Positions 3,885 to 50,952 of a stretch of DNA of 64,000 nt are shown one piece after another. The stretch is from assembly GCF_964355755.1 (NCBI RefSeq), contig NC_092672.1:25860437-25924436 (forward strand). The letters run 5' to 3'. The notes under the pieces were generated by a model, which was given only the letters and a program-made list of their open reading frames with translations, made no database searches and had not been told where the DNA came from. Source of the DNA: Antedon mediterranea (lineage: Eukaryota > Animalia > Echinodermata). Within the stretch, counting starts at the first letter, position 1; each line of letters starts with the position of its first letter. A program made the translations under genes and the position numbers.

Positions 3885-4318
3885 CAGGGCTAAACATTAC
3901 GACAGAGCAGCAGGGCTAAACATTACGACACTGAGCAGTAGGGCTAAACATTACGACAGAGCAGTAGGGCTAAACATTACGACAGAGAAGCAGGGCTAAA
4001 CATTACGACAGAGCAGTAGGGCTAAACATTACGACAGAGAAGCAGGCCTAAACATTACGAGAGAGAAGCAGGGCTAAACATTACGACAGAGTAGCAGGGT
4101 TAAACATTACGACAGAGCAGTAGGGCTAAACATTACGACAGAGCAGCAGGGCTAAACATTACGACAGAGCAGCAGGGCTAAACATTACGACAGAGCAGCA
4201 GGGCTAAACATTACGACAGAGCAGCAGGGCTAAACATTACGACAGAGCAGCAGGGCTAAACATTACGACAGAGCAGCAGGCCTAAACATTACGACAGAGC
4301 AGTAGGGCTAAACATTAC
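3885..4318. repeat. 26-bp minisatellite, about 16-17 copies
   Basis: Tandem unit cagggctaaacattacgacagagcag with minor variants. Confidence 0.95.
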
Positions 4319-6278: not shown

Positions 6279-9200
6279 ATGCCGTCAAAGTTTATCAATA
6301 AGTTACGACCGAAGAAGAAGAAGGATAAAGATAAGCACAGAGGTAGTATGACGTCACTTGCTGAAACGTAAGTTCTTCATCATTTTTCTTTTAAATATTA
6401 ACGTACATTCCTTAGTTTCTTCTACGTCTCTATAGAAATAATACTTTCTATCCTATCTACATGACATACTGGGCCTACGTAATGGTGGAGTGAGTATGAC
6501 GGTGATGAAGATGACACGAGAAGTAGTGATGATGATAAGATAAATTGTAGACGATGAAAATAAAATTGATTATACATTTCTTCAACGGTTGATGCTCCTC
6601 AAACATGGACTCCATCCCGTTCAACTCTCTCCCCTAACCACCAACATAACTGTCCCTGTTCTTTATAATTCATTAAAATTACATTACGTAATCTTCTCTA
6701 ATTATTAGGCCTATTAGTATTTAGTATACCTTTGAATTCGTGTAGCTCTTAATCATGCAATGTTAAACTTTTTCTCTCAGCAAATTATTTTTGTATGCTT
6801 CTGAGTTTTACAAATCAGCACAATTTCAACATGCATTCAACAGTGTAACGTATTCGTATAGGCATTAGACTCAGTTATTTATTATAGTTATTATAATAGA
6901 CCTGTGAGTCCCAGTGTAAACGGAACTAGCTAGATGATGGGTGGGTAGCGATAGTCCGCAGTAGATTTATATAATAGACGGTAGTTTATACACAGATTTT
7001 TTAAACGAATTTGACGTATCGGTTGCGTCGAGTTTCCTATCTTTTCTCATCTGCAACATTTTGATAAAGTTACGTTACATATGACGTCATGTCCAATAGC
7101 GCAATTCGCGCCCTTGAAACAACTTATGACAAGTACCGAATATTGCGATGGATTCCATAATATGAAGGCCGTGAAATAAAAAAGTTAATAACAAAATACC
7201 TCAATTTTGACAATTATTATACCACAAAATGTAAAGAATTTAATATGTTTGCCACCTACGTGTTTGTATATTGTTGTTGTTAATCTGTGTTTTGGTTCCA
7301 TGACCTTAATAGTTGAATTAGGGACAATTCAAGCGTGTTCGTGTAATCTATCATATTATAATATATAGTAAAAGTTAACTTTCGTTACGGTTCAATCTGA
7401 CGTTATTTAATATGTGGCGTGCAAAACTATAATCTACTTGTAGGTACACGTGTAGTGAGGAGTGAGTCTGATGTCGATGACATGAGTAAGCCTACAACAA
7501 AACCATGTAATTAAAACAATTTCAAATTGCATGCTACTTGAATTAATTAGATTGATTTTGTATGTAACTTACTACAGTAGTCGTATTTTTGTACGGTAAT
7601 TATTTTAACATTTCATTTTTGTTAGACTTTAATTAAAATTTGCTTCGTTACCTTCGTTAGAAAAGTCACTTAAAAGACACTTAAACGTGCGTTTCTGTTA
7701 AAATTAAACCAATACATTTATATCGATACTTTAGTACTTTACCATATTCACTCTAATATCAGACTTTTCTCTACCCACGGATACCAACATCTTCCTGGTT
7801 ATTGCTCGGCTCTCCCTTGAGTTCGTTGTTCCGTCATAGACGCATTGGATAATTTTTTTTGATAGGTTCGATTTCGATTCCTATTTATAGAATTGTATTA
7901 ATTAGCCAGGTTTCAAGTTTGTTTATATTTCACCATAATCTTTTGCCAGCACTTACTATTAATGATTCTACAGTAGTGACAGTATGCGGCTGCGAACTGC
8001 GGTGTTTATTCGCGAAAAGTACGACCGCTTACGCTAATTGGTCCTTTTGTATAGCGAAAGTTATTTGAGACGTTCCACAGCTAAAATATTCTTATTTGTA
8101 TATATAGTAAAGCTCTGTCTACACTATCAAACTTTATATGACAAAACATGTGATGTGCCCATTGACATGATGATGCCATGGGCATTTTAGGCACATCAAA
8201 CTTAATTTTGCTAAAACATGTTTGATAGTGTAGACAGGGCTTTGGAATCTTACGAGAGATTTTCAATGTTTTTTTCTTATTTCATTATTTCATTTATACT
8301 AACGATATTAACCTTCTAAAAATTATGCTAATAATTAATATATTGACAACGTTTGTTCGACCGGGTAGTTTATTGAACCTTCACTTGACTATGGTATATC
8401 AATTTGTATGATTATTAGGATTATTTTATTCTAATTATCCTAAGGTTGTTAAATTTAAAGCTTCAATAAGATGTGTAACAAACCAAAATGTAAAACTAAA
8501 AAGACGGAATATCGTTACAGTATTACGTTTCCTAAAAATAAATACATAGTGTTTTTAAACTTGTTAGATACCGTTTTATAAGGTATCGTGTGATTAAGTT
8601 TATTGCAATTTCCTTGTAAAAACTCATGCGAACTCGTATGCATTACGACTGAATATGGCGAATTGCCAGCACAACAGTTTCCGCTATCGTTTGTCAAACT
8701 TGTTATCATAATCTATGGATGTCATGAAAACGTCCGACTTGATATAAGTTCTACAAATGGGTCATATTTTTAATTAAATTAATTCTCTATCATTTCTAAC
8801 AGCAGTATTATTCGCTTACTCATGTGCTAATTACGCCGTCAGACTATTATACGCAAATGTTACAGTTGGCGGGCGTTAGTAGATTTTTTGGATAATATGG
8901 TTATATACAGATGGTCGGATCAGTGATTATGATTTGATTTGTCAAGTTACATACGTTGCTTGTCGATTTCTTGCTTTATAACTTACATTCAATTTTCGTA
9001 GAGTAGGCTATGTCTGAAAATATGGGACGAAGTGTGCTGCCTTAACTTGATCTATAATTTTTATTATATTATATAATAATTTAAAATAATGAATTATTGT
9101 AAACCAAAATATATGCATACATTAATAAATGAATAAAGAAATACCCATAAAAGAAAAAAAAAGGTATAAGACCAATATTATTGGCAGGAGACACGATACT

Positions 9201-12200: not shown

Positions 12201-15200
12201 TGTATTTAACTACCGTGGAGTAGCTTTGCATAGTTGAGTAATTGGTTAGATCTGTACTCTGGCATAAGTTTGTATTTATACACCTGTATATATGTAAGTA
12301 ATTCTCGAGCGGGACCTATAGATCAATAGCCTGACGTTTATACTGATTATTTTCTTTAAAAATTTTATGAACTTATGGGGGACACAGATTTAAAAAATGT
12401 GTTTGTTATTTCATTTCTTCCCCACGAACCCATCGCAAGTATACTGGGTCAATTTTCTAGCTCATATAATATGTGCGAAGGTTTATGACCCACATTCCGT
12501 CGTGCATCCGATATTTCCATTAAAACGTCGATCAATGGAATGTGCAATATTCTCCCGTGAATATTCGATTGGGGCCCATCCACAGGTGGCTTCTAGACCA
12601 TAAGGTCTAAATAATTAGGCTATAGTTTAGATAATATGTTAACATTAATTACTTGATTCCAGAAAATTAATAAAGTATTTCTCGTCCAATAAATAGATTG
12701 CCGATTGAAATAAAAGTACGATTTTTTATTAACGTCTTGATTAAGGTAAAGAATTCCTTAACATTAACAAATGTTAAACATTTTATTAATTATGTGTACT
12801 TTTCTGTATAATTATTATAGGCCTACCTTTATACCAATGCCATTTTAAAATAAAACAGATTAATGCATACAGAACATACTCCGACCCGATTTACAGTATC
12901 CTTACTAGAACTATATAATTTAAATATCGATATCTTTAGCTTTAAAAACAAAATTATTATTATTTTATTTCCAAAAATACAATCAATAGGCCACCAGATG
13001 TGGCAACAATACAAACAAGGTTCTCAAAACTTATTATTGTTCGAATAACAACATTTTTTTTTTATATCTATCGATACAGTAGCTATCAATTTATAGAACA
13101 CACTTTTTACACTCAAACATTGTGGTATAACTTTGCACTGTCGGATGTACTTCTGAAACTCTCGTGAAGTATCAATCGGGAGATAGATCGGAGTTTTGAC
13201 GACATACGAACTCGTTTTGTTTGTAAAATCCGATGTATTGGGACAAAAAATGATTTAGTTTGAACCCCAAATGGGCAATCATCAATCGTTGACTTTTGAG
13301 TTCGTAACTGTTAAAATGTCCTTCTACTGGAACCAAATTACCACGTGACATTGTACTGTTTATAATAATCACTTTTTTAATGGAATGTTTACTATAGAAA
13401 TGGAAACAAAAAATTCCAGTGTCGATAATCCAACAAATTGTGAAGATATAACAGTGTGTGTAAGTTCTATTGATTTATGATCCAGTTATGTAGGCGATGG
13501 GTGGGTGTAATATTATATTCCTTTATAATAAATTTCCTACGAGTGCTTTTTGACAGTGACTGACCTTGTAAACATATTCTGTTGAGGAATTTCAAGTATG
13601 ACGGGGATAGAGATTCAATATAATACGACGTATTAAACGATTATGAAAGTATTCAGCTAATTCAATTGTGTTTATAGTTTATCAATAGATAGTTACAATT
13701 TATTGCCTATTGCTTTACACGATAATTATTGCCTCAAAGCGATGTTTCTTTTGAAGTTTTAACTGAAGCTATGGCGGGCAAAGTGTGCCTTAAACGATTA
13801 TGAAATTATTCATCTAGTTAAAAATGTGTTTATAGTTTTATCAATAGATAGCGACAGTTTATTTTGCCTATCACTAAACCACAATAATTTCCTTCCATGT
13901 TTCACGTTTAAAAGTTTTAACGAAAGGTATGGCATGTAAAGCATATGCCTAAACAAGTAAAGAGGACGATACTACACCATCAACAATAAGTAAAGTATGT
14001 GTGTTCATTCATCATAACACACATTCAGGATGTGTAGATCATCAATAACGACCTCACACACTCACCATCGAGCAACATCCTCAAACAAAGAAACACTAGG
14101 CGAATTTGTTCGCGCGCGCAAATCCAACGTTTCTTCGCAGAAATAAATATCGCGCAACCCTTTTCCACAACAGCGATTAGCTGCGATTTCAATGTTCATC
14201 AAATCAAAATAAACATTTTTTTCTTGAAAAGCAGAAAAGATAGCCTTTAGATTCGCATTCATGAGTGCTCATGAACGCGTCATAGCTCATTTCCTGAGCT
14301 CTGATAGGTTGCGCAATTTTCCTCTTCGCAAAAAGTAAAAACAATTTAAAGCGAAAAATTCAAGGGCCTAGAATTCGTCGCAAAGAGAGGGATTTGGAAG
14401 GTTGAAAATGAATACGCATGCGTATAAGGCGACTCTTTCGATTCACACAAAAAAATTTGCCTACTGTAAACATTTTGGCACACATGGCGTTTACAGACGA
14501 GAATGAAAACGCTGACTGGGGGCGCTCGTAATACTAACAGCATCAAAAAAGAGACTTCGGGAAAGTATAGAGTTAGATTAGGACACAGTTTGTGTTTACC
14601 ATATCCGCCATGACGACCTTGCACACTTTAGAAGAGAAAACAATCAATCATAACTGTCTTCACCTCAGGTCAGGGTGTGTGTGTACCATCCATCACAATG
14701 ACCTCACCCTCCCAAGGTATAGATAAGCAATACCTTACCCCTGAGGTAATATATTCCCCGTTTAGTAGCAATTCATTAGTCATTAGTGTTAGCATAAGGG
14801 CAATGTATCGTCATCCATAACACCAACATAATGTACACTTATGCGGAAGGCAAAGACCTATCAATTTATATAAATATGTAGGCCTACTGCCTCATGAGGA
14901 TGTACAGTCATTCTAGGATGTGATTTACTTTACGGTTTCCGAAATAAATATATATATAATGATTGATTGACAATACACAAAACATTTAAAAAATACACAT
15001 TGATGTGATGTGAATGATCATTCACAAACTAAAAAGGATATAATTATTATTATAACTATTTGTAACTAAAATTATTGTTTCAGTTTTGGGTTATGCTGGC
15101 AGCATACATTATATCAAGTTTGAGGCTAGGTAGCTGCTGCCTTGAGATTTTCAAATTATGACTTTTCCCCCAACCCTCAATAATCATTGTTTCGTGCCGG

Positions 15201-18200
15201 CCAACAGGGTCAAAACGTCCTGCTGTGAAATTTCCCTAATTCAGTACTTACTCGCCAATATTTTTAACGTTGTTGTCGCCTAGGATTTTGAAGTTTTCAA
15301 GTAAAAAAAACAACAAAACTTTAAGATTTTATATAAAAAGCGTCAGATTTTAGGTGCGTAAGAATCACGCCATATGCGCGGGACTTAACATGTAGGAGTA
15401 TATTGTAGAGGACCACTTCAATGCCCTAATTGTTTTGATTCTTATTTAAGTTTATACTTAAGTATTTATACGCAAGAATAAGAATAGTGAATAAATGTGT
15501 ACAATACTATTCAGTATCACACAGATCTATTAACGGTTTATTTTAAGTAGACCTCTTATGTGGTGTTGTGTTGTTGTAAAATACTTCGAATAACATTTTC
15601 CTGATTTCAATTGAATGAAATAAATCAATAACTGATTTCTTGGTATTGAGATTTTTATCTTACTATAAAACATTTTTTTTTTTTAAATACATAAATATTA
15701 TTTATGTATTTTTTAATCCACTATTATAGTCATGGCGTTGACGCCTAAATAAATAAAACGAATGAACCTCGAAATGTGGTTGCTGTTGATGGTAGCCACG
15801 TGTGACTGAACAGTTTAACTTGCGCAGATGGCGTTTCACTCGACTCGATGCGTAGTCGAGTGGCGCGCCGTAACATATTTCAATTTCAATAAATTCTTGT
15901 TATATCTAAGAGACGAAGTCAAGAAAAACTGTTTTCCTATGCCTCATGGTACCACACTTATAGAAAAAGAAACTCTCCCCACATGAACTCCCACTCTCTT
16001 AATGTAAAGGAGTAAAACCAACTCTTTTAGAGTAATAGTCACTCTTTTTAAGAGTGATAGTAAGGACCACTATTAAAAGAGTGAAACCACTCTTTGAAAA
16101 GAGTGAATCGCTCAAATGTTTTAAAGTGTGGTTTTCACTCTTTCAAGAATGATTCTAATACCACTCTTCAAAATCATTTAAAAGTTTCACTCTAAACAAA
16201 TAGAGACATTTTCACTCATTTACAATAAGAGAGTATAGCGTGGACTTGTGAAAATGTACACATTTTGCAGTTAATTCAATGACATTCAAATCACAAACTA
16301 AGGGTATACAAGTGAAACTAACTTCTGAAGAATCAAATAACAGCCATTTTAAAAACATAAACAGAAACTAGTATTAGAAATTAACACATATTCTTTCCTA
16401 ATCACGTGGTAGATATAACATATCTACCACGTGATTTGGAAATGGTGTACAGTAGGCCTATCATCGACAGTAGTCCGAATGTGTAAAGGAAGCATAGATA
16501 ATCTAAATGTCAGTTACTGTTAAAAGGAAATGTTTATCGTGATAGAGTTCATGTGCAGTAATAAAATGCTGTTGTTTTATAAATTTACAATCGGCCATCT
16601 TGTTAAATAGGCCTAGACATTATATTGTTCATTTGCTAGGAAAGCGCCTGATTTGACAGGTCACGACTGTTTTTATGTTAACCCCAAAAACGAAATTATG
16701 TACAATCATGTATTGTTGTAGAACTGTTATTTCTGTGGTTATTGTTTCTTTTTACGTTCTGTCTCTGAATGAATGTCTCATTGCCAAAACAGTAGGCCTA
16801 CCACTTCGTAATCCCATAACGGTGGTGTAGGCCTGTAAGACGTAACACCCTTTCTCGTCCTGAGAAAGACGTCCTAATATTGATTTGATGTTAAATCGGT
16901 TGATGGAGTGATGTTAGTTTTAATGCAGCAGGCGGTAAAGGAAGATAAACAAGTACGATTATTTATAAAATAACCAAATCATGTGCATTTAAGAAACGTG
17001 AATCGGAACATGTTTATACACAAGTTGTATTTATAATTGTTATTTAAACAATCTTTTAACTTACAAGTTACATAAAAGTTATTATTTGTTTTAGGCAAAC
17101 ACAGACCCCTTCTGAAGTAGAGACCCGCAAGGAATATATAGAAGCATCCATTTTGAGCAAAGTCAATCTTGATCCTCTAAATGAAAAAGACGATTCCAAC
17201 ACCTTCAAAAGTAACATCGAAAATTACATTGGCACGGTGAAAGTTCCAGTAGGGGCAGTTCAGGTACAAGTTAACGGTAGTCATGCAAATGGAAAATACA
17301 CAGTCCCATTGGCAACAACAGAAACGTCTTTAGTCGGAACCTGCAACAGAGGATGTCAGTTGATCAATATGTGCGGTGGTGTTGAGTCAGTAGTCATCAA
17401 GAAACAAGTCCAGAGTGCGCCGATCTTTCACTTTGAAAGTATTCGTTTAGCTGTGAAGTTTAATGAATGGCTAGGCCTACCAGCGACATTTGAGTCTGTC
17501 AAAACCAATGCAATTGCCGTTGTTGAAGAGGCTGTTCTTGTCAAACTCGAACACTCTGTGCATGGCAACTGTGTGTACTCTCGTTGGTACTTCGATACTG
17601 GAGAAGCAGTTGGTCAGAATATCTCTACTTATGCTACAAAGGAAGCTATGGAGTCAATCTTAAAAGAAGCACCCGTCCAACCGAGTAGCTGGGACCTTGA
17701 CGTCGGACTTGCTAGGAACAGACAAGCGGCAACTAGTCTGATGATAGACGGACGTGGTGTCTATGTAACTGGAGAAGTCGTTTGCCCAAAGGAGAAGGTA
17801 GAAGAGATACTACACGTGTCAGGTAAGTGAAACCAAATAAGTAATTATTTTTTATCGAACATTTCTTACTACGGAATTTATCTAGAATTTGTGTAGGCCT
17901 ATTTACGTTTGTAACTTTGTGATTACACATATTTATATCATGTACTGCACTAACATTATTTAATTTGTAAATTAAGAGATTATGATTGTCTTATGTCACC
18001 CAAAAGTTACATAAACAAAATGTAATGGTCATTACGCCTATGCATGGTTTATTATAACTTATCATTTTGTATTTGACATTTAAAATAAATGTCAATTAAG
18101 TCGACGTTCTATTTCGATTTTGAAATAGAAAACCCATTATTAAGTGTGTTTACTAAAATGGCAACAAGTCTATGAGATTAGTTTTCTTTCTATCAGTGTT

Positions 18201-21200
18201 CATATATAATTGCGTAAGAGAAGGTCATCGCTGCATCAGGAAACACTGTAATTTTCATCAATTTAACTTCTGTGAAGAAGTTATAAGCAAATTGTATTAT
18301 TTGCATGGAAGTCGACCCCTGGGAACACTTGTTAGTCCTCGTACTCTGTAATAGTATCTACATTGTGGTTATTATAAAATATATTTATAAATGTCGAGAC
18401 ACCTTCAGTACGCACTCGATTTCTTTAGTCCTGCACATATGGCACAATTTTATCCAAATTATGTAACGCAGTGTCACTATGCAGGTCCATATATAAATTG
18501 TAATGGTACCGGTACGCTACTTCTGTAGCCTATGATACAGACGTTACATGTTATGCACTGTTTTACAGAATTTGCTGATGATACTGGACAAAGATATTGG
18601 GGTAAATGCGCTCCATGGGCAAGGGAAGCTTAGGCATAGACGAAGTTAAACATTTAGAATAGAAAATTCAACATAGAAAGTTATAAGAGTTAACTAATTA
18701 TTATTATGCTCTACATGTGTATTGTAATGGTACATTCAAGCTTTAAGGCGCAAATTATTGCATTTTAGTATTAAAGTCAAAATGGCTTCCGTTATTGTAA
18801 ACGATCTTGATTGCGCCATAATCAATTCTAATCAGCAGAATAATTTGGCAGGGTTTAGGTAGCCATTTTTCATCGAAATATAGATTGAATCATGTATACA
18901 GTTGTTGTTATCTTTACAATTGCAGCCGAGAAGCTGGCGTCTTTTTCAAGAGAGTCGAGAACATGGCAACTAATCTCTCATACCGCAGGTATGTTATTTT
19001 CTATAAAAATTTCTTTCAAAGCGTTTGATTACTTAATCCGTTTAATTCAAACGTATGCGTAATCGAATCGTATTGGCAAAGATTCTATACTGAAAATTAT
19101 AATACTTTGGCATGCCGTTATAGACAACCATTGGCCCATTTCATGGCAAGAATACATCTTTCTGTTCCTGAGAGTGCATCCGGATTTTTGTTATAGACTT
19201 TTTCTAATAGTGCAGGGGCGTAAATGTGGACTACTCATTTTAGTATCATAAATAAATAGGTACAGTTATAAGCGAGTGTCTTATCTTGTCAGTGGTGGGT
19301 GGGTGGTTGTATGACTGACGCTTATTTTAACCTCAGAAAGAAATCTATTATTTTATCCAAAGTTCGGCAGTATAAAATAAGCTACGTTTCACTTCATGTA
19401 GCTTTATACATCCGATACAATACTAACATTTCCGAGAATTTTATAAGTATGTTCAATCGGTACGCAGAACCTAGGAATTTGAGTTGGTGTGTTCGAACTG
19501 TTTACAAAATATACCGCCCTCTTTAGTTAGCATAATTTCATTCGCTTTCTTATACCGTCAGATTACTAGTTTACTATTACTAGGAATCGTTATATTATTA
19601 AATCATTGATGCCATTCATTTAATCTAGACTTATCTTTCTTGCATGATGAAATTATGATCAATGTAGCATGATCTGCAATTTCGCATGCTATCTTCTCCG
19701 ACTTTCTCTTTGTTTTGGTTCCTTTCCTCTTAATTCCCCTGTGGTATGATTTCATTATTACTTAACTGATTCATTACTCATGCACTGTCTATGCACATAT
19801 TTATAGGCTCAGGAATAATTGATAAAGTTATAAAACACTAATCTCTGTAGAAGATGATCATTGCCCGCCGCGTTGAACCAATTGCCGCGGCGTTGAACCG
19901 ATTGAAAGTTTTAATCCTTCGTCTGGTACAATGAGTCACATGGGTGTTTTGCATCGAGAGATATCGATTAAAAATGCTCTGTTTAACAAACCCGAAATTT
20001 GTACTATTTATAATGTGACTATACCGCCACATTTATTATAAATCTTGTTAATGGTGTAAGGGAGGGGTTTATTTTGTTTACTGGATTGTCCACATGTATT
20101 CCGTCAGAATTAAGACTTTCTGAAGAATAAGGTATATAGTAATGTGCATTATGATAGCCAGTGCGCCTACTCGCCCTGCGTTTTAGTACTTAATGTAACA
20201 CAAGCAACACTCGCACATGTCAATAAATAACACTATGCGTAACAATCTAGATCCAGTATTATCAACATGGCCTTATCTAGGTCCGTCATTGAAAACGTGA
20301 CCTTATTCAGGTCCGTAATAACGCAATGAACTCATCTAGGTATGTTATCTTAGTAGGATATTAAAATCGATTTACTTATATTATATTAGGATGTCTATTT
20401 GAAAAGCGTGATTTTCTTGCAAATCGTGCGTTCTTAATTTTCTCCCTCAGTATTATGACATACAATAACATTTAGTTAACAACAGTTTTCAATTTATTTA
20501 GCATTATCCAGAGTAATATGAGTCATTAGTTATACTCGTATCCGATTGTCCCAAAATGTTATAACCATCATATTTATGTCAACATACAAGATGAATAACG
20601 ATGTTACTATGTGAAAAATGAAAGGTGATTCATACACCTTGACTTTAGATGCTGGGAATACTAACACATTATATTTGATCTATTTTAGATGATATCTAAC
20701 AGGATAGTACATTTTATTTGAATTGAAATTAATATTTAATAACTAAACTTTTGTTTATTTTATGTTTGCTGCTAATAATAACACATCTGAATAAATTTTA
20801 AAGTGGCGGATTCCATCCGATATCTAGATTTCCCAGTAAAAATATGCAATACAGCATGTAGCCTAGTATCAGAGGCCATTAACTGATCCTTAACCTCACC
20901 ATGGCACATGTGATACACATGTGATACTGTATTACCGAATTGGTCTAAGATAGAGTAAACATGTTGTCGTATGTGAGATGTGAGAGATAGGCATACATCA
21001 GTAGTATTACCTTGTCCCTGATACGTTGGGAGATAAGCAGGCATTCAAATGAAAACCAATACTTAAACTTAGTTGGCAGCCATTACATTCAGATCGACTT
21101 ATTTCAGGGTTAACCATTTTAAATATTATACATCATAGGCCTATCTAAAATTGTAATAGTGCCTTTACAATTATCTGTATTTGTCCATTATATGGGGAAA

Positions 21201-22964
21201 TAATGCTACTAATTTAAAAACAGAAATGTAGGAAAATCCGCTTCTTTAATTTATTTTTACAATTTTATTTATTTTGTTGGTTTACGTTTTACTAACATTT
21301 TACCGCAAAGCTATTACTAACGTTGGTTCTTAGTTTTGGGCTTCTCATCTTCCAAAGCGCCCTCACATACAGTTTCTTCAAACATTCATCTCGAAGGCTC
21401 GACATACCAATCTGCCAGGGTGATCGCAGCAATACTGGTTGCCAGTGGGCTGGATGCGGCCGCCGTAGTTGAATCGCACGTCGGGATCTCTGATATGAAG
21501 CTAACCAAGAACGGTGACCTTCGAGTTATTGTTACTCTGCCATCGCTGATGATAGGGACAACTGGAGGAGGAACCAAGCTACCAAGCCAACAGGTAAAGT
21601 TAATACATTTTTGGAAAACCTGTCCATTAATGGGGCTTCATCTGTACATAATAAGGGCCGTGAGGACACTGTTCCCAAAACCTCAATAGGCAAAGTGGCA
21701 AACATATTGATATCCACGCCTAAGGCGCAAAACAATGACGTACACACAACCCAAGTAATTTGGCCAATCACAGGCGACAGTTTGATGATCATTCGTTTGT
21801 GATTGGTGGAATTAGTGATACGTACGTTCTGGTATACTAGTGGTACTGTAATACTAAACTCATCTTAACGTGAGAATTCGAGGGCTGCTTTAATGCTGCA
21901 AAGAATCCTGTAATAACGTTACTCTTTGATTGCAAAATAATTTTCCACTAGAAACAATTAATTTATTGAAATGTTTCAACATACAGCACCCAATATTAAA
22001 TGTCACGCTATAATATTCTTGGATCTTCTTTAACTAATGCAAATCATAGATATCATAATCTTTGGCGTTTGAAGTAATTTTCAAGGACAATCAGAAAAGT
22101 AGATTCCAAGAAGATAATTAATAACCATCAACTTATTTATATAATAAAGATTTAAGACGTTCATATTATATGCATTTCCTGAACTGCTGGAATAGATACT
22201 GCTGAGTCATTGGCAAAAAATACGATATTGAATATACCAGATTCCCTATAGGGTACGAGGTTCATATTTGGACAACATATTTTGAAATTACAGCTATTCG
22301 TTGGTTTCGATATTTTCGAAATTCGGCTAAATCAAACCAATATCAGCAAAGATAGTAGCGGGGATATAAAATGTTTGCTATCACAGCAATATGCAAAATG
22401 TTTAATTTGTGTTTTTCATGACGTGCCACTCGAATACAGCTGTCCAGTTAAAATACATATATAATATGTGGGCGCTCAGAAGCATTATGAGCATGCACAA
22501 AATGTATGTTAGACGATTAACCGGCTTGGTAGTCGCATTGGCATATCGCAAAAACAGGAGGTCGCCACTATCTACTTAACTAGCACCTTCCACTGAATTA
22601 ACATAACGATTACAAAAAATATTTTTTATAGGCATGTCTTCAGATTATTGACCTCCCGGAAGAGAAAAGTAGAGAAGCATTTGCAGAGGTCGTCCTGGCT
22701 GCAGTGTTAGGTGGTGAAATAGGTATGTGTGCTGCAATGATTAGCCACCATTTTGTAAACAAGAAAAAACGAACTGAGTCAGAAACACCATCTACATCTT
22801 TGCCAAACGGAAATTCGGTCATCGAAGAAGATAAAGCTGGTGAAGCAGCCGCCGAAAAGCTCAATGGCGATGCCACTCCGAGTGAACAAGTCAATGGTGA
22901 CTCGGCACCAGGAGAAGTTAAAGAGGAGACCAAAAAAGAAGATAAAAAAGACCAAAGCAACTGA
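6279..22964 (+). CDS. Divergent soluble class I HMG-CoA reductase-like protein (about 469 aa, no membrane/sterol-sensing domain)
   Basis: Exons: 6279-6367 (MPSKFINKLRPKKKKDK...; GTAAGT, phase 2), 17095-17822, 18926-18988, 21397-21593 (in-frame alternative acceptors at 21334 and 21373), 22632-22964 (TGA). All junctions are GT-AG and phase-compatible. HMGR motifs: NIENYIGTVKVPVG, VPLATTE, TGEAVGQN, GRG, GLDAAAVVES, VTLPSLMIGTTGGGT-LPSQQACL, AEVVLAAVLGGE. Exon 1 rests on phase and donor quality across a 10.7 kb intron and is the least certain part. Confidence 0.88.
8111..8241. mobile_element. Palindromic MITE
   Basis: 21-bp TIR agctctgtctacactatcaaa / tttgatagtgtagacagggct (1 mismatch), internal tgatgtgcc/ggcacatca symmetry, TAA on the 5' flank. 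Confidence 0.7.
13633..13954. repeat. Diverged tandem duplication, about 157-bp unit x2
   Basis: ttaaacgattatgaaa...tgtgtttatagttt(t)atcaatagatag...aagttttaac...tatggc...tgcct is repeated at 13633 and about 13790. Confidence 0.8.
15993..16234. mobile_element. MITE with internal CACTCTT/AAGAGTG repeats
   Basis: TIR actctcttaatgtaaa / tttacaataagagagt and multiple internal cactctt...aagagtg mini-hairpins. A related fragment lies at about 33810-33932. Confidence 0.65.
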
Positions 22965-24291
22965 ATAGATACTAGTGAAACAATATGAATGTAAATCAGA
23001 AATCTCATTACAATATTTTAAATAACGTTACTGATTTAGTTAATGCTGCATGTTGAAACTTGTACACTCAACCCTCTTCGTTTAGTCATTGGTGGATAAA
23101 CCGAATAATGCTACGTGTATCAAATTCCAGTTAAAGTAACGTGGGCCAAAGTACGCTCACTATCAAATTACACAGGTAAACCCGTATTAATTTTTTCAAT
23201 GCAAAAGTGAAATTTATTTCACGTTACAATCCCAAAAATATAATCTAATTTGGTACAGTACAGTTTCTTGTAAATGTAAAAATGAATGAATTTGGCCAAC
23301 CGACAAAAGTGAAACAACACGTTGATAAGTGGGCGCTTTCAAAATCAGTACCAATCAAGGCTGAAATGAGAAACTGAAATAACATAGTTACAAAATAATT
23401 ATTGGGGGCGCTAGACAAGATTGTTTGTTCGTCAACCAATACAGCAGCTCCCTCTATTTATGAAATGTATAAGTTCTGATTCGTCCCTTCCTCAATAGTT
23501 TATTAGATAAAACGATAAAACTACGACTACAATATTATTCAGAGGGCACACTACGAATCAAAAAAACACAAATCTATCCAAGGTACATCCCTGTTCAGAA
23601 GACACTTTCTGTTAAAATGAAAACAAAAGGCAATATACAAATATATATTTTGTAACACTACAGGGGACACTTTCATCGTTCCACCGTCTAATACTGTGCA
23701 GCAGCAAATCAAAAACAAATCTTACCTGCTTAACTTTTCATTAAATTGACGATTGGGTATTATTATCAATTTGCATGAATTTATAGACCAAATATTGAAA
23801 CGATTATTGTTATCAAATTGTTAAGTAGGCCTATTAAACGTATTTTTTTTTATATAGGCCCAATATAACTATATAAGTTTGTATAATATTATATGTTAAT
23901 TAGTAGATATTATATCCGTATAGTGGTAAAAATATCGGACTTTTACCGATATATTATATTAAACAATGTATATACAATTATTACAAATATAATCTGATGT
24001 TAATTGAATGTTTGTTTATGACGCGTCGAAGTATAGTAGTATTCAGGGTAGTTTTTATGAAGTAATAATTCCTAAAATGTACTTTACGTTTTCACAAATC
24101 ACCACGTGCATACGTAGCTGTCTAGTAAATACATCATTCTGCGCACGCTTAGAAACATATGAACCGCGCATATTTGCCACCACGTAGACGCACGGCGTGT
24201 TGTAAAAACGAAAGCTTGCTATTATATTAAAAAAAAACTATGATGAACACCTACTCGAGTTGACGTGTGCTTGGTGATGAGGTGTGATTAA

Positions 24292-24425: not shown

Positions 24426-25184
24426 TAAATCAAGAATTTTTATAGATGACAAGTATTTGTCACATATAAAGTATAATACGGGTTTTTTTTCTTGTTGATT
24501 TTTGTTATATGCTTTTGTATATATTATAAATATATCTTTTATAATAGAGGTCTAAAATTTAAAGCTTGTAAATACAGAATTATTGTAACCGGAATTTTGT
24601 ATTGATAATGCAGACGGCGATTGGCTGAAAGATAGATTAGTAAAATATAGCTTCTTCTTGCCCTACTAGTTGCATGGTGATTATACCTAAACACTAAACA
24701 CACACAGAATAGGCATGCCTACTGGATATCAATATATTCACCATGCCATTGACAACATACTGATTACCTATGATAGATTGATTAAACATTGTATCTCTAT
24801 TGCAAAATTTCGAAATAATTAATAAAATTACACATTTCCCCAGTCAATTAGAGTTTCTTATTGTACGCCTTAATGTTAAAAATAAATCGCTTCTGATAAT
24901 TATTAAATTAACCAAACGATAATTCACCTTGAAATTTGACCTTTGAAACTATGTAAATTGAAGTTATGCTGCTTTTTTTTGTAAAATACATGTTATAATA
25001 AAAAGCTATACACGGACAATTAGAAAATATTTTGTTTATTTGGTATTAAATTTTACACATTGATTTGAATAAAATAACATCTCTATTATAATAAATAGAA
25101 ATGTTTATGTTCTGAACACTAACTACGTACTCTCGGTCATTTTTGACGAATGCTGCATTAAACTAAATAATAACATAATAGAGT

Positions 25185-25530
25185 GAGTCAGTGGCCGAGC
25201 GGTTAAGACATTGGAACCGTAATTACGTAGCCATAACATCGGCAAGGGTTCGAGGCTCACTCGCTTCATGGTTCTGGTGGTAGAACGAGTCTTCTCGGAT
25301 AAGGACTATAAACCGTAGGTCCAGTGTACACATAGCTCATGCGCACTTTAAAGAAGTGAAGTACAGAAGTACATCCTTCGAGACGAGTAGGGGGTTACCC
25401 CGGTGTACTAGTCCACACAAACACAGCCACTGTCACACACAGCCACTGTTACAGGTGTTTACCACTTGTTGGTCCAGATCTTTCACTAACTGAGTTCGTG
25501 AGAAGTCGAATAAATAAAAACAAAAAAACA
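25185..25530 (+). mobile_element. tRNA-derived SINE with Deu-domain-like body
   Basis: Pol III A box tggccgagcgg (about 25192) and B box ggttcgagg (about 25247). Central ctcggataaggactataaaccgtaggtcc...gagtagggggttaccccggtgt resembles the DeuSINE conserved domain (recalled, not aligned). A-rich tail. Confidence 0.75.
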
Positions 25531-31291: not shown

Positions 31292-31920
31292 ATTGGTTAA
31301 GAGTGTGTTTACCTGCACCGGGTGACGGGTCTTGATTAAGAGTGTGTTTACCTGCACCGGGTGACGGGTCTTGGTTAAGAGTGTGTTTACCTGCACCGGG
31401 TGACGGGTCTTGATTAAGAGTGTGTTTACCTGCACCGGGTGACGGGTCTTGGTTAAGAGTGTGTTTACCTGCACCGGGTGACGAGTCTTGGTTAAGAGTG
31501 TGTTTACCTGCACCGGGTGACGAGTCTTGGTTAAGAGTGTGTTTACCTGCACCGGGTGACGAGTCTTGGTTAAGAGTGTGTTTACCTGCACCGGGTGACG
31601 GGTCTTGATTAAGAGTGTGTTTACCTGCACCGGGTGACGGGTCTTGGTTAAGAGTGTGTTTACCTGCACCGGGTGACGAGTCTTGGTTAAGAGTGTGTTT
31701 ACCTGCACCGGGTGACGGGTCTTGATTAAGAGTGTGTTTACCTGCACCGGGTGACGGGTCTTGATTAAGAGTGTGTTTACCTGCACCGGGTGACGGGTCT
31801 TGGTTAAGAGTGTGTTTACCTGCACCGGGTGACGGGTCTTGGTTAAGAGTGTGTTTACCTGCACCGGGTGACGGGTCTTGGTTAAGAGTGTGTTTACCTG
31901 CACCGGGTTACGGGTCTTGA
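31292..31920. repeat. 39-bp minisatellite, about 16 copies
   Basis: Unit ttggttaagagtgtgtttacctgcaccgggtgacgggtc, contiguous, varying mostly at two positions (ttgG/ttgA, cgGg/cgAg). Confidence 0.97.
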
Positions 31921-36414: not shown

Positions 36415-39400
36415 ATGCTCTTAACTTGTACAACGATGCAGTTAGGTGTTTTTTTCAGGCACATACGGGTAGTGCAATACGCGATTTTAGTATGCTGTTA
36501 CGCGCTTTCATCTTCAAAGGCTTTGCCGATATCAGGTACTCTACCTCAGGTAAGTAACTATACATTAATATTTCAACTTTTTTGTTTTCTTTATGTTTAT
36601 TTTTCTCAAATTGTAGACGTTTAGTATTATCATTATTAATTTTAATTGACAGTTATCTGAGTTAAATGACTTTTCTATGGAGACATTTTCAAGCTCTAAT
36701 ATCACTACATCGTTTTTTCTGAAATGTCAATGGAATGGATTTTGTACTGATGGATGCGACCATTTTGACAAGAAGAGAACGTGACATTAAATTTAACAAA
36801 TTACCTATTAATTATATTTTAGATTTCTGAAATGTATCGGATTAAACCACAACAATTTGACGTTAATACAATGGATCAATCACCGTTATCATCGTCATCA
36901 TTATCATCGTCATCATTATCATCGTCGTCATTATTATCGATATCTGAAAATATAGAAGAGTTTGTTAATCCACCTGAATGTGGCAAATCTAACGACGACA
37001 CATTACCCGAAGGAGGACGTGAAAAGAGATATATACACGTAGGCGGAAAATGGTCCGGTTCGAAGGTAACCTATAGGTGAGTTTAACCTAAAATTATCAA
37101 ATTCCCCGGCGGTTAATTCAAAAGAAATTGCTCAGGTGGATGGCCATAAATCCTGTTATTAACATTTCTGACTTACAAATTACACCTTTTTGCAATTGCT
37201 GTTTATATTATTTCTTGTAACAACCCTTCTTTGCTGCTACATTGGCATCCGTCAATAGGCTCCTCGTATGGCAGTATAACCGCCCGCGAAGATACCTATT
37301 TATTGCTATTATCGTTTACTTGACTTGACTCCGAGTCAGGTGTATAGTCATAAATCGAATGAAAAGCAGACTCACTGTTTATGATTCTGTAACACATCCT
37401 GATATCTGTAAAACATTTGAATTATTCCATTTGTTACAACGAGATGAAATAACAACATTAAGCGTTCAAGGCAGGTGTGACGCTAACCGCCGTTTACCCG
37501 ATGTCGAAGATCACGTCCAGTAGTCATAAATCCGAATAGACGTAGGCCTATATCATCAGATTAGAAATTAGTTAAAATCATAAAAGTGTTCCATAATTTC
37601 TTCCAATAGAGTCTTAGTTAGTTTTTAGCAGCAAACCCACTATAAGCTAAATCTAACCAATGCTAAATCTATCATGTATTACGTAAACTTGTTTTCAATT
37701 TGGTTATCATTGATGACGTAAAAAATAGTTATAATAAGCTAAACATGAAACCGAATCGCTCAGTAGGCTTAAAATTAAGTTACCTGGCGGTGCGTAAAAC
37801 GTCACATTTTCCCTGAAGTGTTTTCCCTTGTATTACACAACTATTACATTTTTTTATTTTGGAGTTTATTAATGTACAGAACATTTAACCTAAAACACGT
37901 TAGGAAAAACAATGCAGCCGGTTAATATAATATGTTCAGCCTGTATATTATACATATACTGTTAGTTTTAGTCAGTGAAGCCATGGAGGGAATAATTGCT
38001 ACGTTGGGAAGCTGACTAACAACACAACAGTGTGTTTCAACTAAGCTCTGTAGCAAGATCTGTTATAGATAGAGTTACCTATTTTATATTGCCAGACACA
38101 GAGATGACCTAATAATAACTTTAAAATAGTTTAGTAGACTACCAAAGTACACGATCACTGACCATGGAAGATAAATAACTGGTACCACAGCTACTACTTG
38201 CACAGTGTGTTTTAGGTCTAAACACCCCTAGAGAAGACACCTTCGGGACGCGTCGCTATCCCCATTAATAATAGGGATGGTGCTAAATAGAGGTTTGCCG
38301 TAGTGTTAAATGATACCTTAGGCCTGCTCCTCATTTCACGGGAAAGTGTAAGTAGGTGTTCTACAGTAGGCCTATACGATACGTCAAAGTACCTTTAATT
38401 GCGTCTATATTATTATTTAAGCGTTTGCAACCAATTACAAAAAAGCTACAACCACAGAGACCTCCCTGCACAGAGGTAACACTTAATGATAATTAGCCAC
38501 TGGCAATAATTTGTATAAGGTCACTTTGATTGACTGGTCAAACGTCCCCGGGTGTTTTGACATTGTTTTTTTTCAACAGTACTATCAAAATCACAGGTAT
38601 ACGTACGATACCAATTAGTTGCGAGGTTTGACGTTACGAACACATCAAGAAGCCAACGCGATGTTAACACATCGATGACGCGAAATGTGTAATCCCGCCA
38701 GGCGTCGATGTTGAGCGCTACACTGTTTAATACATGGACCATTGTTATAAATGAACACCCTGGATCTGATCTCGTAAAACAATTGTGTATATTGACAGAT
38801 CATAGTTTTACAACAGTGTTTATATGGTTTTCATAAAATCATATAATTTACCTACCGCGACTCAACTTCAAAACACCGGTACACGGGAATAAAAAAATAC
38901 ACCATGCATCAATTTGTATGGGAAAAGGTCTCCAATTCTCAATAATGCATAATAACATATTAAAAAAAAACATATGTAAAATAATAGAACTGCCTGCCTT
39001 TTGTAGTATAACTTTAGTACAGTGATTCAAACAAACTAGAGGGCGCAACTCACATGATACATGTTGTTTAAGACCGTGTTTCCACAGTCAAAATATACAC
39101 GCAATGCAAAATTAACCGATAAAAGGGTCATTCAGATTAGACAAAAGTTATTAATACGATAATGTTTAACCTTTGACATGGAGGTTAAATTGGTGTGACG
39201 ATGACGTACGGTACAAATGAAGTTTCTCGCATTATGTTAATGATTGGGCATACGTAGTTATTATTTTATTTTATTAACGATCTGTAAAATAACAACATTG
39301 ATGTGTTTTTTTTATTGCAGAATAATGAATTACCCAAAGCGAGGTAAACCATCTAAAGCCAAGATTCACAAAAACATTGCCCGAGCATTTAGATTGTGGG

Positions 39401-40001
39401 AGGGCGCAAGTAACTTAAACTTTGAAGAAGTTTACTCAGGAAAAGCAGATATCGTCATATCATTCGCCAAAGGAAAACATGGCGATAGATACTCATTTGA
39501 CGGTAAAGGCGGTTGGTTGGCGCATGCGTTCTATCCAAGAAGTGGACATGGTGACATGAATGGTGATATTCACTTTGACGATTCAGAAAAGTTTACACTA
39601 AGACCAGGAAAAGGTACGTAGATAAAAAATCAGTATATAATTTTACGAACACACCAGTTTTCGTGTGTTTTGTCATATGAAGTTCAAATTCAGCTTAAAA
39701 TCCGTTGCTTAATTCTATAAACATATGTCGATTGCTTAATTATGCAAATTTGTAGTGCCATGTAATGTCTAACATATATCTTTATTTTTTTTCAGCTGGT
39801 TATAATTTCTTCTATGTTGCATCACACGAGATTGGTCATAGTTTAGGGTTGGGACACTCGCGGGTAAGAGGAGCTCTCATGGACAGTGCGTATCCAGATG
39901 ACCCGTACAACGTAAAACTCACACAAGATGATATTGACGGCATCCAGGCGCTCTACGGTCCACCAAATACACAATCAAACGATATTTTTGATCTCATATA
40001 A
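36415..40001 (+). CDS. Matrix metalloproteinase (M10A matrixin), minimal form without hemopexin domain, copy A (about 288-295 aa)
   Basis: Exons: 36415 (or ATG 36436)-36549, 36823-37076, 39321-39613, 39796-40001, all GT-AG and phase-consistent. Signal peptide ending ...SSSKA|LP, furin site [33 protein letters not shown], zinc motif [11 protein letters not shown], Met-turn [14 protein letters not shown], then a stop after 12 residues. Confidence 0.93.
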
Positions 40002-44448: not shown

Positions 44449-47400
44449 ATGCAGTGGTATTATTTAAGACATTTAGTGCAATATGCGATTTTTATGTGCT
44501 GCTTTGTGCTATCATCATCAAAAGCGTTGCCGATATTAAATGAGGTAAGTAAACCTAAAATAAGGTAAAAGTAAGGAAAATATTGATTTTTATTAAGGTA
44601 AGGTTGATTAAGTATTTTTATTTGTTTTGTCTTATAGGTTCGTCCCACTTTTGTTGTTAATGTTTTTTTATTGTCACCTTTATGTTTTACTCTATTATTA
44701 CTACGAGGTAGTATGTGTCAAATGTTGCGTCGTGTAAATTACAACCTACTACATTTGAATAAAGATGCTGTGAAAGTGTCCCGGTAGTAGATCACTGAGC
44801 GTGTGCTCTCAATGGCAGAATAAAACTTATAACCAATTATCATTGTTATGTTACATTATAGAATACACGTCAAATGCAATTAAATCCGGTGAATAGCATT
44901 ATGAAGGAGGACTTATCACTATCATCTGCGTCATTATCACAAGATAGTATGTTTGATGAGGTTATTATTACACCGTCTGAAGATGAACGTAATTTGAGCG
45001 AAAAACAGATATTGGAAACAGATATAACACGTGAAAAGAGGTACACACATAGAGGAGCCAAATGGAATGGTAGAGTAACTTACAGGTGGGTTATAATTTC
45101 ATTATTTGGAATTACGAATAATGGACTAACATTTTGAGACATTAACAGTTATTTTAATCAAATTTCAAATTATTCATTAAAATTTTTTTTTCAAATGATA
45201 TTGATTGATATATATTAATTAAGTTGTTCAAAAGTTACAACAAGAATGAAATAAGCAAATCACTGGATTTGCAATAATTAAACAAAATACAAAATATTCG
45301 TTATATTTATTTTACACCATACTTAGCCTATTTTTTCTATAGTCAAATTATATAATAACTTATCCGCTAGTAACCTCTTTAATCAATGTCAAAGGTTATG
45401 AGAGGCGGCGATTCAAAAGGAGAGTGCTCAAAGTCCATTACTTGATGAATGGAATGCATTTTTAGAAAGATAATTCATAGAATAACCCGTAGGTCTATAT
45501 TTTACCATTATAAGGTTGTTATTAGTATAAAAATAATCAGTTAATATTCATATTTTTGTATTACTAAGTTATTGCAACCTATAGAATAGTCTATTTGGTT
45601 TTTTTGTTTAGAGCGTATTAAAAGGAATGGAATGACCTACTTTAATGAAAGTTATTATTGAATGACCTATATCACCGGGATTAGAGTTACGACGAATATA
45701 ACCTAGTAGGTTTTTTTTGTGGATTAGAAGGTCTAGTATGACGGACCATTACCACATGGTTTTAGAATAGGAAGTTTATTTTGACACGCGACATTATTAC
45801 TTTTTAAATAAAGTTTTCTTTTTTTACAATTTTTATTTTAACTTATTTAATGAGGATGAACTTACATAGACACAAATAACAATGTACACTTTTAAAAACT
45901 TTTTAAAATTAAAAACGAATAAAAACTCATGGCATTCAATTGCATATTGATTGTAAAGTTTACAAAAAAAATAATTTTTAGTGAAAGTGTAAGTTAATGG
46001 TTTTTAAATCAAACTAGTTGAATTTAAAAATTCTAAACTAGTTACGAAAGCGAAAATCAAGTTGAAAGCAACAAACAGTTATCTATCCGTTATCAGTTAT
46101 CATTATTTCTTAATCAAAATAGTATATCTCAATCAATATTGTTTATTATTTGGACGGTTTATTTGAACGAATGAAATAACCATACCTTGCTTATAATAAT
46201 GGTTCTTACGACAGCAAAAGCAGAATACCCTGAATTAGTGTCTTACATGGCGTTACGGTAAACGAGGATCACATGCATTTAAATAGGAAGTTATTTATTC
46301 AATTAGACCGTATCCTATACACTAAAAGGAAACGTTTAAAGCGACAATGGTTGCAGTAGGTTTATCAGTCATGTTTTTTGACGGATAAAATAATATATAG
46401 ATATATGTGGAATTAAAAAAAAATGTGTTACATTGAATGGAAGTTGGACAATTTTATTGTTTAGGTAATATTTTATTACAGTTTATATTTTATGATTAGT
46501 AAAAATTCTTACGAGAAAAACAATTCTAGGTTAAATAGTTCCAACATTGGAATGACAGATATGGAAGAGAGAGATTTGAACTCGTCACCAGGACGAGATA
46601 AACTATATAATGCGCAAACCTAACGTTACGTGCACATTCGTGCGCGTTATTGCTAGGAAAGGAAGGTATCATACTGCAAATCATCTGATACAAAAATAAA
46701 AAAAATAAAAAACCGGAAATGATTAAAGATTCTTTAATTTTAGACAGTTTTCCAACATTTATAAATTCACTTAAATCACATGTTTTATATTGACTTTGTT
46801 GAATCGACTATAATGTATTTTATCCATTTTTTTTATATTGACACTGTTGATTTGTCTATTTGTTATTTAATTTAATAATAATAATAATAAACTAGAAATA
46901 TAATATATATTTTGCGCTTTCAGAATACTCAATTACCCCGAGCGTGGATTACCACCTAAAGCCAAGGTCCACAAATACATCGCTCGAGCGTTTAGACTTT
47001 GGAGGGCAGTAAGTAACCTGAGAGTAAAGGAAGTATATTCAGGACACGCCGATATTCTGATATCGTTCGTTCAACGTAATCACGGAGATGGATTTCCATT
47101 TGACGGAAGAGGTGGATCCCTAGCTCACGTGATTCGAGGAGGTGGCAACCTTAATGGTGACATTCACTTTGATGATTCTGATAAGTTTTCGCTAAAACAA
47201 GGAACAAGTATGTTGAACATTTACTATGCATTATTGTGATTAAGCCTAATGTCTAATAATTAATCTCATTAACAAAATAATACCTTTTACTGTTTTAGAA
47301 TTGAGTATTTCTAACTAAAATCTGCTGCTGAAAAGTTGCTGTACTTTGGCGTAAAAACCGATAATTTTAATCAGCTTAATCCAGCTAGCCTAGCACATTG

Positions 47401-50301: not shown

Positions 50302-50952
50302 TCAATGAGCGCGCATGAGAATCGAAACATTTAGCAGACATGTGATGGAAATGGAAATCGCAGCTATTTAATTTTTGTAGATTTGTATCTCTTACTCAAA
50401 CCGTGGTATGTTTACATTTTTCTCAACAATGTGCGTCACTCTGTCGACCTTTCTCAAACTGAACTGTACTTTTTGGTTTAAATCAGACATTAAATAAAAG
50501 TTACAATAAGGCGGAACACACTAATCAAAACAACAGCGAACACTCAACAGATTAAATAGGCATGTATAAACTTAAAAGTCAATATGATCATAATACAGTA
50601 ATATTACAATGTACTATATCAATTACAATACTGTAGTCACGTTAAATACAGACACAACTAAACTGGTACAAACTGGTTCGGTCCGGTTAGAAGAAATACA
50701 AAACACAAACAAAACAAACAACCATACATAGGCCGACAAAGTACTATTACATGAAAGAATACATTAAATGCACAAATAAGATCCTATAATATAATAATTG
50801 TATTGCCACTATCGATTACAGTATACACAAAAAGGCTTATGCACCGACACGTCACATATATTTTCAATCATCAAGGGCATTTAAGTAGGCCTAGATGCGC
50901 CACAGAGAGAAGTCACTATTTGAATTCACCAATGTTATACGCTAAAATAACT

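Follow-up and report, generated by a model that had tools for sequence, protein, structure and literature searches.

Gene structure and transcripts

The 64-kb window of the crinoid Antedon mediterranea described here (the whole stretch analysed, contig NC_092672.1, positions 25,860,437 to 25,924,436) carries a single gene on the + strand that resembles 3-hydroxy-3-methylglutaryl-CoA (HMG-CoA) reductase (HMGR), with no second HMGR copy. The gene encodes a soluble protein with the HMGR fold in which most of the conserved HMG-binding residues are replaced, and its present role is likely a new one, probably non-catalytic. Its closest counterparts among the matches listed are in Anneissia japonica, which has an orthologue and three intact-looking soluble paralogues, XP_033100050.1 (P0003), XP_033100071.1 (P0058) and P0060.

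The gene has five coding exons (Table 1), and every intron is GT..AG. The spliced translation of 469 residues is identical, letter for letter, to the RefSeq protein P0054 of A. mediterranea, in agreement with the model of roughly 469 residues put forward in the first-pass annotation, which had also read the gene as an intact spliced open reading frame (ORF) with the class I HMGR fold; all the motifs it quoted are found at their places in one open frame. The span it gave, 17095..22775, does hold these motifs but misses exon 1: the coding sequence starts in the exon at 6279-6367 and ends at 22964. Exon 4 has alternative acceptors, 21397 for the 469-residue form, 21358 for a form of 482 residues (P0001) and 21334 for one of 490 residues (P0055), and RefSeq labels all three as HMGR 1-like isoforms.

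Splicing and transcription are deduced from contigs that skip the GT..AG introns, the runs carrying no RNA label on record. The joints between exons 2-3, 3-4 and 4-5 are present in contigs of runs X1 and X5, which belong to two studies, and for the first intron a loose end before 17095 in the contigs of both runs corresponds to the last 30 nt of exon 1. Contigs of runs X2, X3 and X4 read through the introns. Acceptors 21397 and 21358 are seen in both X1 and X5, and 21334 in X1 only. Contig depth, a weak measure that does not rank expression, is highest for the 469-residue joint (37.7 versus 11.7 and 9.75 in one run, 143.3 versus 91.8 in the other). Isoforms of the Anneissia orthologue carry inserts of 8 or 18 residues at this splice position, after residue 293, and the insert peptide SHTVSSNIHLE is identical in the longest of them. 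The shared acceptor use and the identical peptide suggest that either the insert itself or a splicing element is under selection.

Residue numbers are those of human HMGR unless given in the numbering of the Antedon protein (E106, S137, V173, E174, E175, E200, R239, R301, D313, K404). The human numbers come from a mapping by motif offsets that used three canonical eukaryotic HMGRs, and they are consistent with HMMER alignments to human chains of the Protein Data Bank (PDB).

Table 1. Features of the HMGR-like gene, in window positions
Feature	Position	Strand	Remarks
Coding exon 1 (ATG, residues 1-30), Lys-rich	6279..6367	+	Matches P0054 residues 1-30; GT donor; loose end in X1/X5
RPKKKK basic motif, resembling a nuclear localization signal	6306..6323	+	Pattern match only; also in the Anneissia orthologue
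Coding exon 2 (residues 30-273): ENYIG dimer motif, LATTE, S domain, altered cis-loop	17095..17822	+	Pfam PF00368, E=1.6e-44
LATTE; E106 = human E559, kept	17309..17323	+	Predicted dimer interface
VQSAP; S137 in place of R590	17408..17422	+	R in 118/118 bacteria and 3/3 intact crinoid paralogues
AVVEEA; V173/E174/E175 in place of NADPH-site S626/R627/F628	17516..17533	+	
EAVGQN dinucleotide loop, kept	17603..17620	+	
ARNRQAA cis-loop; D690-K691-K692 to N-R-Q	17711..17731	+	
Coding exon 3 (63 nt, residues 273-293)	18926..18988	+	Boundaries equal those of the 21-residue block skipped in an intact-paralogue isoform
Optional 5' extension of exon 4	21334..21396	+	Acceptors 21334/21358 add 21/13 residues; three contig joints
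Coding exon 4, 469-residue form	21397..21593	+	
QSAR (H752Q, N755R)	21408-21419	+	
GLDAA (D313 = D767, kept)	21447-21461	+	
GTTGGGT	21555-21575	+	
Coding exon 5 and stop; charged low-confidence tail	22632..22964	+	
HHFVNKKKR (H866K, then R871S)	22746-22772	+	
Likely 3' UTR, at least to 24207	22965..24207	+	A spliced X5 contig runs through

Fold and predicted dimer

Exon 2 alone matches the PF00368 profile with 152.9 bits (cut-off 27), and the class I HMGR model (E=5e-70) fits far better than the class II model (E=2e-7). The score against the NCBIfam equivalog TIGR00533, 236.5 bits, is below the cut-off of 441.8; the intact paralogues and two bacterial relatives are below it as well (270-343), and the protein is not singled out by this measure. 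The AlphaFold2 model, which leaned on a 123-row alignment of intact homologues, has a pLDDT of 80.9 and a pTM of 0.81, with pLDDT under 50 from residue 415. All 25 rows listed by Foldseek for this model are HMGRs, the archaeal and human ones first (6HR8, E=7e-33, TM to target 0.80).

The protein shares with class I HMGRs of known structure (6HR7/6HR8 from Methanothermococcus, human 1DQA and the Arabidopsis-type 7ULI) the fold, the ENxIG dimer motif, E559, D767, the Gly-rich dinucleotide loops and a predicted homodimer. However, identity is about 30%, and their R590, D690, K692, K735, H752, N755, H866, S626, R627 and R871 are not kept. The catalytic domain is also homologous to that of the canonical membrane-bound animal HMGCR (TIGR00920), but the Antedon protein is without the sterol-sensing membrane domain, and its three RefSeq isoforms start instead with a basic exon of 30 residues.

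The homodimer prediction, in which NAD was included but not scored, reached 0.74 against 0.00 for the best of three controls, with contacts agreeing to at least 86% and a partner pLDDT of at least 85. The mark applied is reached by 20 of 30 solved homodimers and 1 of 23 monomers (17/29 and 0/30 for eukaryotes), and since HMGR dimers have already been solved, the pass may reflect memory of the predictor. E106 and D313 are within the predicted interface, where residues 290-293 pack on residues 241-244 and 293 of the partner. The spliced inserts of 13 or 21 residues fall next to the cis-loop, where the model places the two-fold contact.

Residue changes at the ligand sites

R590 and H752 are counted here among the ligand-site residues, to which we take them to belong. 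The rest of the list is that given in the review PMC7503714. In the alignment of 126 sequences E559, N567, R568, D653 (as Glu), G656, N658 and D767 are kept, while the changes comprise R590S, D690N, K691R, K692Q, H752Q, N755R, H866K, R871S, S565T, S626V, R627E, F628E and V805T; within the HMG pocket the position of S684 is occupied by Asp and that of K735 by Glu. Of the four catalytic residues that PMC7503714 names, two are thus replaced, K691 conservatively by R239 and H866 by K404. All 118 bacterial relatives retain E559, R590, D690, K691, K692, N755, D767 and H866. Both H866 and R871 of the flap are replaced, and residues 411-469 contain no His.

These results bear out most of what had been read by eye from the motifs, namely the retention of E559 (LATTE), D767 (GLDAA) and GTTGGGT, the exchanges R590S, D690N/K691R/K692Q (with the conservative Arg at 691) and H752Q/N755R, and a Lys aligned with H866 and followed by no His in the tail. 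Neither the HMMER alignments to the human chains nor the 126-sequence alignment restores the DKK motif, HxxN or the catalytic His. EAVGQN, previously regarded as a variant of DAMGMN, turns out to be the normal motif of a bacterial subfamily, in which GQN occurs in 118/118 sequences. Misalignment as a cause of the missing motifs was rejected, as no gap interrupts the alignment of the 469-residue form with the paralogues between the cis-loop and the flap.

The loss is concentrated at the ligand sites. Of the columns that at least 90% of these bacterial relatives conserve and that an intact crinoid paralogue also shows, 12 of 19 at the ligand sites are lost and 15 of 94 elsewhere (Fisher p=6e-5); at a 97% conservation cut the values are 10/16 and 10/64 (p=4e-4). 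If the paralogue filter is dropped, the losses in the Anneissia orthologue are 12/19 ligand columns versus 31/110 others (p=0.007), those in intact P0003 1/19 versus 27/110, and those in intact P0060 2/19 versus 28/110. By subsite, the losses amount to 8/10 columns for HMG, 2/3 for CoA, 2/6 for NADP, 6/37 for the interface and 9/57 elsewhere.

The first-pass annotation had described change at the acyl site next to an intact cofactor site. As regards the HMG pocket this is right. Of the cofactor site, by contrast, only about half is retained: D/E653, G656 and N658 are kept, while S626V, R627E, F628E, V805T and R871S are changed. S626, R627 and R871 presumably contact the 2'-phosphate; R627 is conserved in just 71% of the bacterial subfamily, and the intact crinoid paralogues have Asn in its place. 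In PMC7503714 S626, R627 and R871 are given only as NADPH-site residues. Reduction of HMG-CoA by the Antedon protein is very unlikely.

Conservation between two crinoid families

The orthologue from Anneissia japonica, a member of Comatulidae (Antedon belongs to Antedonidae), is identical at 307 of 332 core positions (92.5%) and carries the same substitutions; at the ligand sites 25 of 28 positions are identical. Eight coding variants in exons 2-5 were found among three runs, seven of them synonymous (p=2e-4; 9e-4 with transitions weighted), which gives a pN/pS of about 0.04. The sole replacement variant, E200D (17605 A>C), yields the residue of the family: the window has Glu, while run X5 and Anneissia have Asp. 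As had been proposed, the gene on this evidence is not decaying, because its spliced frame is open, nearly all variants are synonymous and the orthologue retains the same changes. Contamination is ruled out by the introns, the animal neighbour genes and the orthologue in a second species.

Intact paralogues, bacterial relatives and origin

The intact Anneissia paralogues form the sister lineage of the altered gene, with 43-44% identity for P0003/P0058 and shared exon-3 boundaries. Unlike the Antedon protein, they keep R590, DKK (DKR in P0060), N755, H866 and R871, have presequence-like N-termini and are without the charged tail. They are not entirely free of changes, as P0060 has K692R and H752Q, P0003 and P0058 have D653N, and all three have R627N. 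Their N-termini are Arg-containing and poor in acidic residues, the first of which is found at position 33, 33 and 59, versus 16 in the Lys-rich Antedon protein, a pattern like that of mitochondrial presequences. All three are listed with one contig of 979,102 bp and likely form one cluster. No intact Antedon paralogue appeared among the matches of three homology searches, whose limited candidate sets make this weak evidence.

Those searches, one of which gave the best 120 of 248 matches, list the Anneissia orthologue and the intact paralogues, followed by bacterial or metagenomic proteins. The closest non-crinoid relatives among the matches listed belong to a Vibrio-like bacterial HMGR subfamily (31-37% identity over the alignment), with which the protein has the GQN motif, an acid in place of S684 and the lack of K735 in common. 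The bacterial genes differ in being uninterrupted and in keeping the catalytic set in 118/118 cases. The subfamily has Glu at S684 in 99% of sequences and no K735, so that even the ancestor need not have been an HMG-CoA reductase. Matches in the ESM Atlas are all HMGR clusters, and the top row for P0003, a mostly nematode cluster, is uninformative on range.

In a FastTree tree of 163 proteins the crinoid sequences form a clade without any other sequence. A 23-row IQ-TREE tree recovers this clade with support of 100/99, the altered gene as sister to P0003 (100/97), and a group of the crinoid clade with the bacterial subfamily, which includes Vibrio, Ruegeria, cyanobacteria and others (99/97). 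The crinoid clade lies among bacterial HMGRs, as a sister to the main subfamily and not nested in it, and bacterial fusions of adenylation and acyl-carrier-protein (ACP) domains to HMGR branch outside the joint group. The approximately unbiased (AU) test rejects trees in which the crinoid proteins join the four eukaryotic HMGRs sampled (p-AU 0.009) or the sole animal HMGCR among them, from a tardigrade (p-AU 3e-66). These trees are site-homogeneous (LG+G4) or built with FastTree, with a solely eukaryotic outgroup and no deliberate sampling of archaeal or actinobacterial sequences. The human HMGCR, chosen at first as the comparator, is not the proper one: the gene is part of a lineage of bacterial type in which intact crinoid paralogues are also found.

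The stem leading to the two altered genes has a length of 0.97, versus tips of 0.05 and 0.04. With P0060 as the outgroup, the altered gene has 57 unique changes and P0003 has 28 (p=0.002); relative to the bacterial consensus the numbers are 46 and 28 (p=0.047). The trees thus support that the altered copy changed fast and then slowly. The 21 residues skipped in P0059, an isoform of P0003, align exactly to exon 3 of the Antedon gene, and the duplication therefore came after intron gain. Together these data suggest that a bacterial HMGR entered the crinoid lineage by horizontal transfer, which is the simplest reading, gained introns and was duplicated.

Proposed function and alternatives

The first-pass annotation offered a novel oxidoreductase or a pseudoenzyme. 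This is still the correct pair of options, of which the second is preferred here. We give about an even chance to a homodimeric pseudoenzyme with the HMGR fold. Likely non-catalytic, it may bind NAD(H) and could serve the cytosol or the nucleus as a scaffold or a sensor. The protein combines an enzyme fold with the loss of catalytic residues and purifying selection, as pseudoenzymes do. The new arginines, N301R and K239R, would fill the substrate pocket by pairing with the two retained acids, E106 and D313, and the flap that closes over the cofactor would have been turned into a basic KKKR segment. E174 and E175 would repel the 2'-phosphate of NADPH, but NAD(H) could remain bound through the GQN and GGGT loops. 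The Lys-rich N-terminus, which is not presequence-like, would be consistent with a cytosolic or nuclear location. Since both kept acids are in the predicted interface, structure alone could explain their retention. The pseudoenzyme is favoured because the His and Arg of the flap are lost, a bulky Arg replaces N755 beside the acids, and spliced inserts are tolerated beside the pocket.

Several observations count against this interpretation. The kept E559, D767, D/E653, G656 and N658, the Arg at 691 and the GGGT loop are those nearest to hydride transfer and fit a new enzyme equally, and 4 of 6 conserved NADP-site columns are retained. The localization is drawn from pattern matches only, and the hydrophobic moment did not separate the N-termini of altered and intact proteins (0.32-0.34). 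The variant sample consists of just 8 sites, taken from assembled contigs.

The main rival, possible but clearly less probable, is a neofunctionalised NAD(H)-dependent and CoA-independent oxidoreductase, where E106, D313 and R239 would catalyse aldehyde/alcohol interconversion, R301 would anchor an anion, and E174/E175 would select NAD over NADP. Retention of both acids, of the positive charge at 691 and of the dinucleotide loops is in line with it, as is the fixation of the new pocket residues in both species, and a new enzyme would be expected to change fast at first and then hardly at all, as this gene did. His mutants of the hamster HMGR reportedly still reduce mevaldehyde, on which a literature search gave no paper. 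According to PMC7503714, His866 protonates CoA. The bacterial subfamily, with its Glu at S684, absent K735 and fusions to adenylation-ACP or acyl-CoA-binding-protein (ACBP) domains, may itself be substrate-flexible. On the other hand, the lost flap Arg, the bulky Arg at 755 beside the catalytic acids and the inserts tolerated beside the pocket count against it, as does the position of both kept acids in the predicted interface. A fuller version of this scenario, which we regard as somewhat more doubtful still, would have crinoids take up a bacterial HMGR, send intact copies to mitochondria and rebuild one into the first CoA-independent, NAD(H)-specific HMGR-fold enzyme, whose substrate would be an aldehyde or alcohol outside the mevalonate pathway; alternative splicing at the dimer axis would then tune the pocket.

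It is unlikely, though conceivable, that the protein is an inactive subunit dampening the intact crinoid paralogues through mixed dimers. The idea arises from the construction of each HMGR active site from two subunits, as the Antedon protein has lost residues of both halves. The 31 of 37 interface columns that are kept, and the existence in Anneissia of intact paralogues sharing an exon boundary, agree with it; however, those paralogues have presequence-like N-termini in place of the Lys-rich one seen here, and the failure of an intact Antedon copy to surface among the limited candidate sets speaks weakly in the same direction.

A transcribed pseudogene, or relaxed selection, would account for an amount of amino-acid change about twice that of the intact sister, but is highly improbable for a frame open in three isoforms, with 7/8 synonymous variants and 92.5% core identity across two families. 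A divergent but working HMG-CoA reductase, for which the RefSeq name, the fold and the two kept catalytic acids speak, is equally improbable with 8/10 conserved HMG-site columns lost, some of them invariant in 118/118 bacterial relatives.

To our knowledge, HMGR-fold proteins are known only as HMG-CoA/mevalonate oxidoreductases. A conserved, expressed relative with a rebuilt pocket, such as the pseudoenzyme favoured above, would mean that the fold targeted by statins can serve another use, and the active-looking natural paralogues allow a direct comparison. The results also point to the soluble HMGRs of crinoids as a family not yet described and probably gained by horizontal transfer. A full-text literature search, with most subscription journals outside its coverage, returned no account of a crinoid HMGR family or of an inactive HMGR paralogue. 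The main text of PMC7351957, as far as accessible, contains no 'HMG', and its four supplement text files gave no match for HMGR terms. Crinoid chemistry is described as little studied in PMC6627624.

Bacterial gene neighbourhoods and fusions

The neighbourhoods of bacterial HMGR genes were inspected for the best 80 of 591 confirmed loci, with genes taken within about 6 kb. UbiA-like genes are found near 40 of these loci, PPDK-like genes near 37 and DUF3419 genes near 34. Among the 40 neighbour ORFs scanned with Pfam, of 1468 called, there was no match to a mevalonate-pathway family. A recurrent cluster consists of HMGR, a UbiA prenyltransferase, a PPDK-like PEP-utiliser, DUF3419 and a protein of ~440 residues without a Pfam match, each member being present in 33-40 of the 80 loci (examples L009:5812-12616, L049:5683-12754 and L077:5668-12775), and the Vibrio loci examined are without this cluster. 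This points to a widespread bacterial HMGR-UbiA-PPDK-like-DUF3419 cluster.

Three bacterial HMGRs, P0160, P0161 and P0162, are fused to an AMP-binding domain, with a phosphopantetheine carrier domain also present in P0160 and P0162, and P0024 is fused to an acyl-CoA-binding protein. The domain composition of these four proteins suggests use as an acyl-carrier reductase. P0163, a protein of 864 residues, combines a eukaryote-type HMGR with a polyprenyl synthase domain (PF00348).

Other features of the window

The window also contains an exon of a galactose-3-O-sulfotransferase on the - strand (2-847; PF06990, E=1.9e-35), and on the + strand two similar matrixin (Peptidase M10) exons (39244-39618 and 46904-47236), possibly from tandem metalloproteinase genes, and a DOMON-domain exon (50755-51228), possibly the start of a copper monooxygenase gene. 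Two minisatellites are found at 3885-4318 (26 bp x 16.6) and 31293-31919 (39 bp x 16.1), the second of which yields spurious long ORFs on the - strand. High-copy dispersed repeats, marked by very high contig depth and many loose ends, lie at about 8100-8240, 14260-14410 and 25180-25420.

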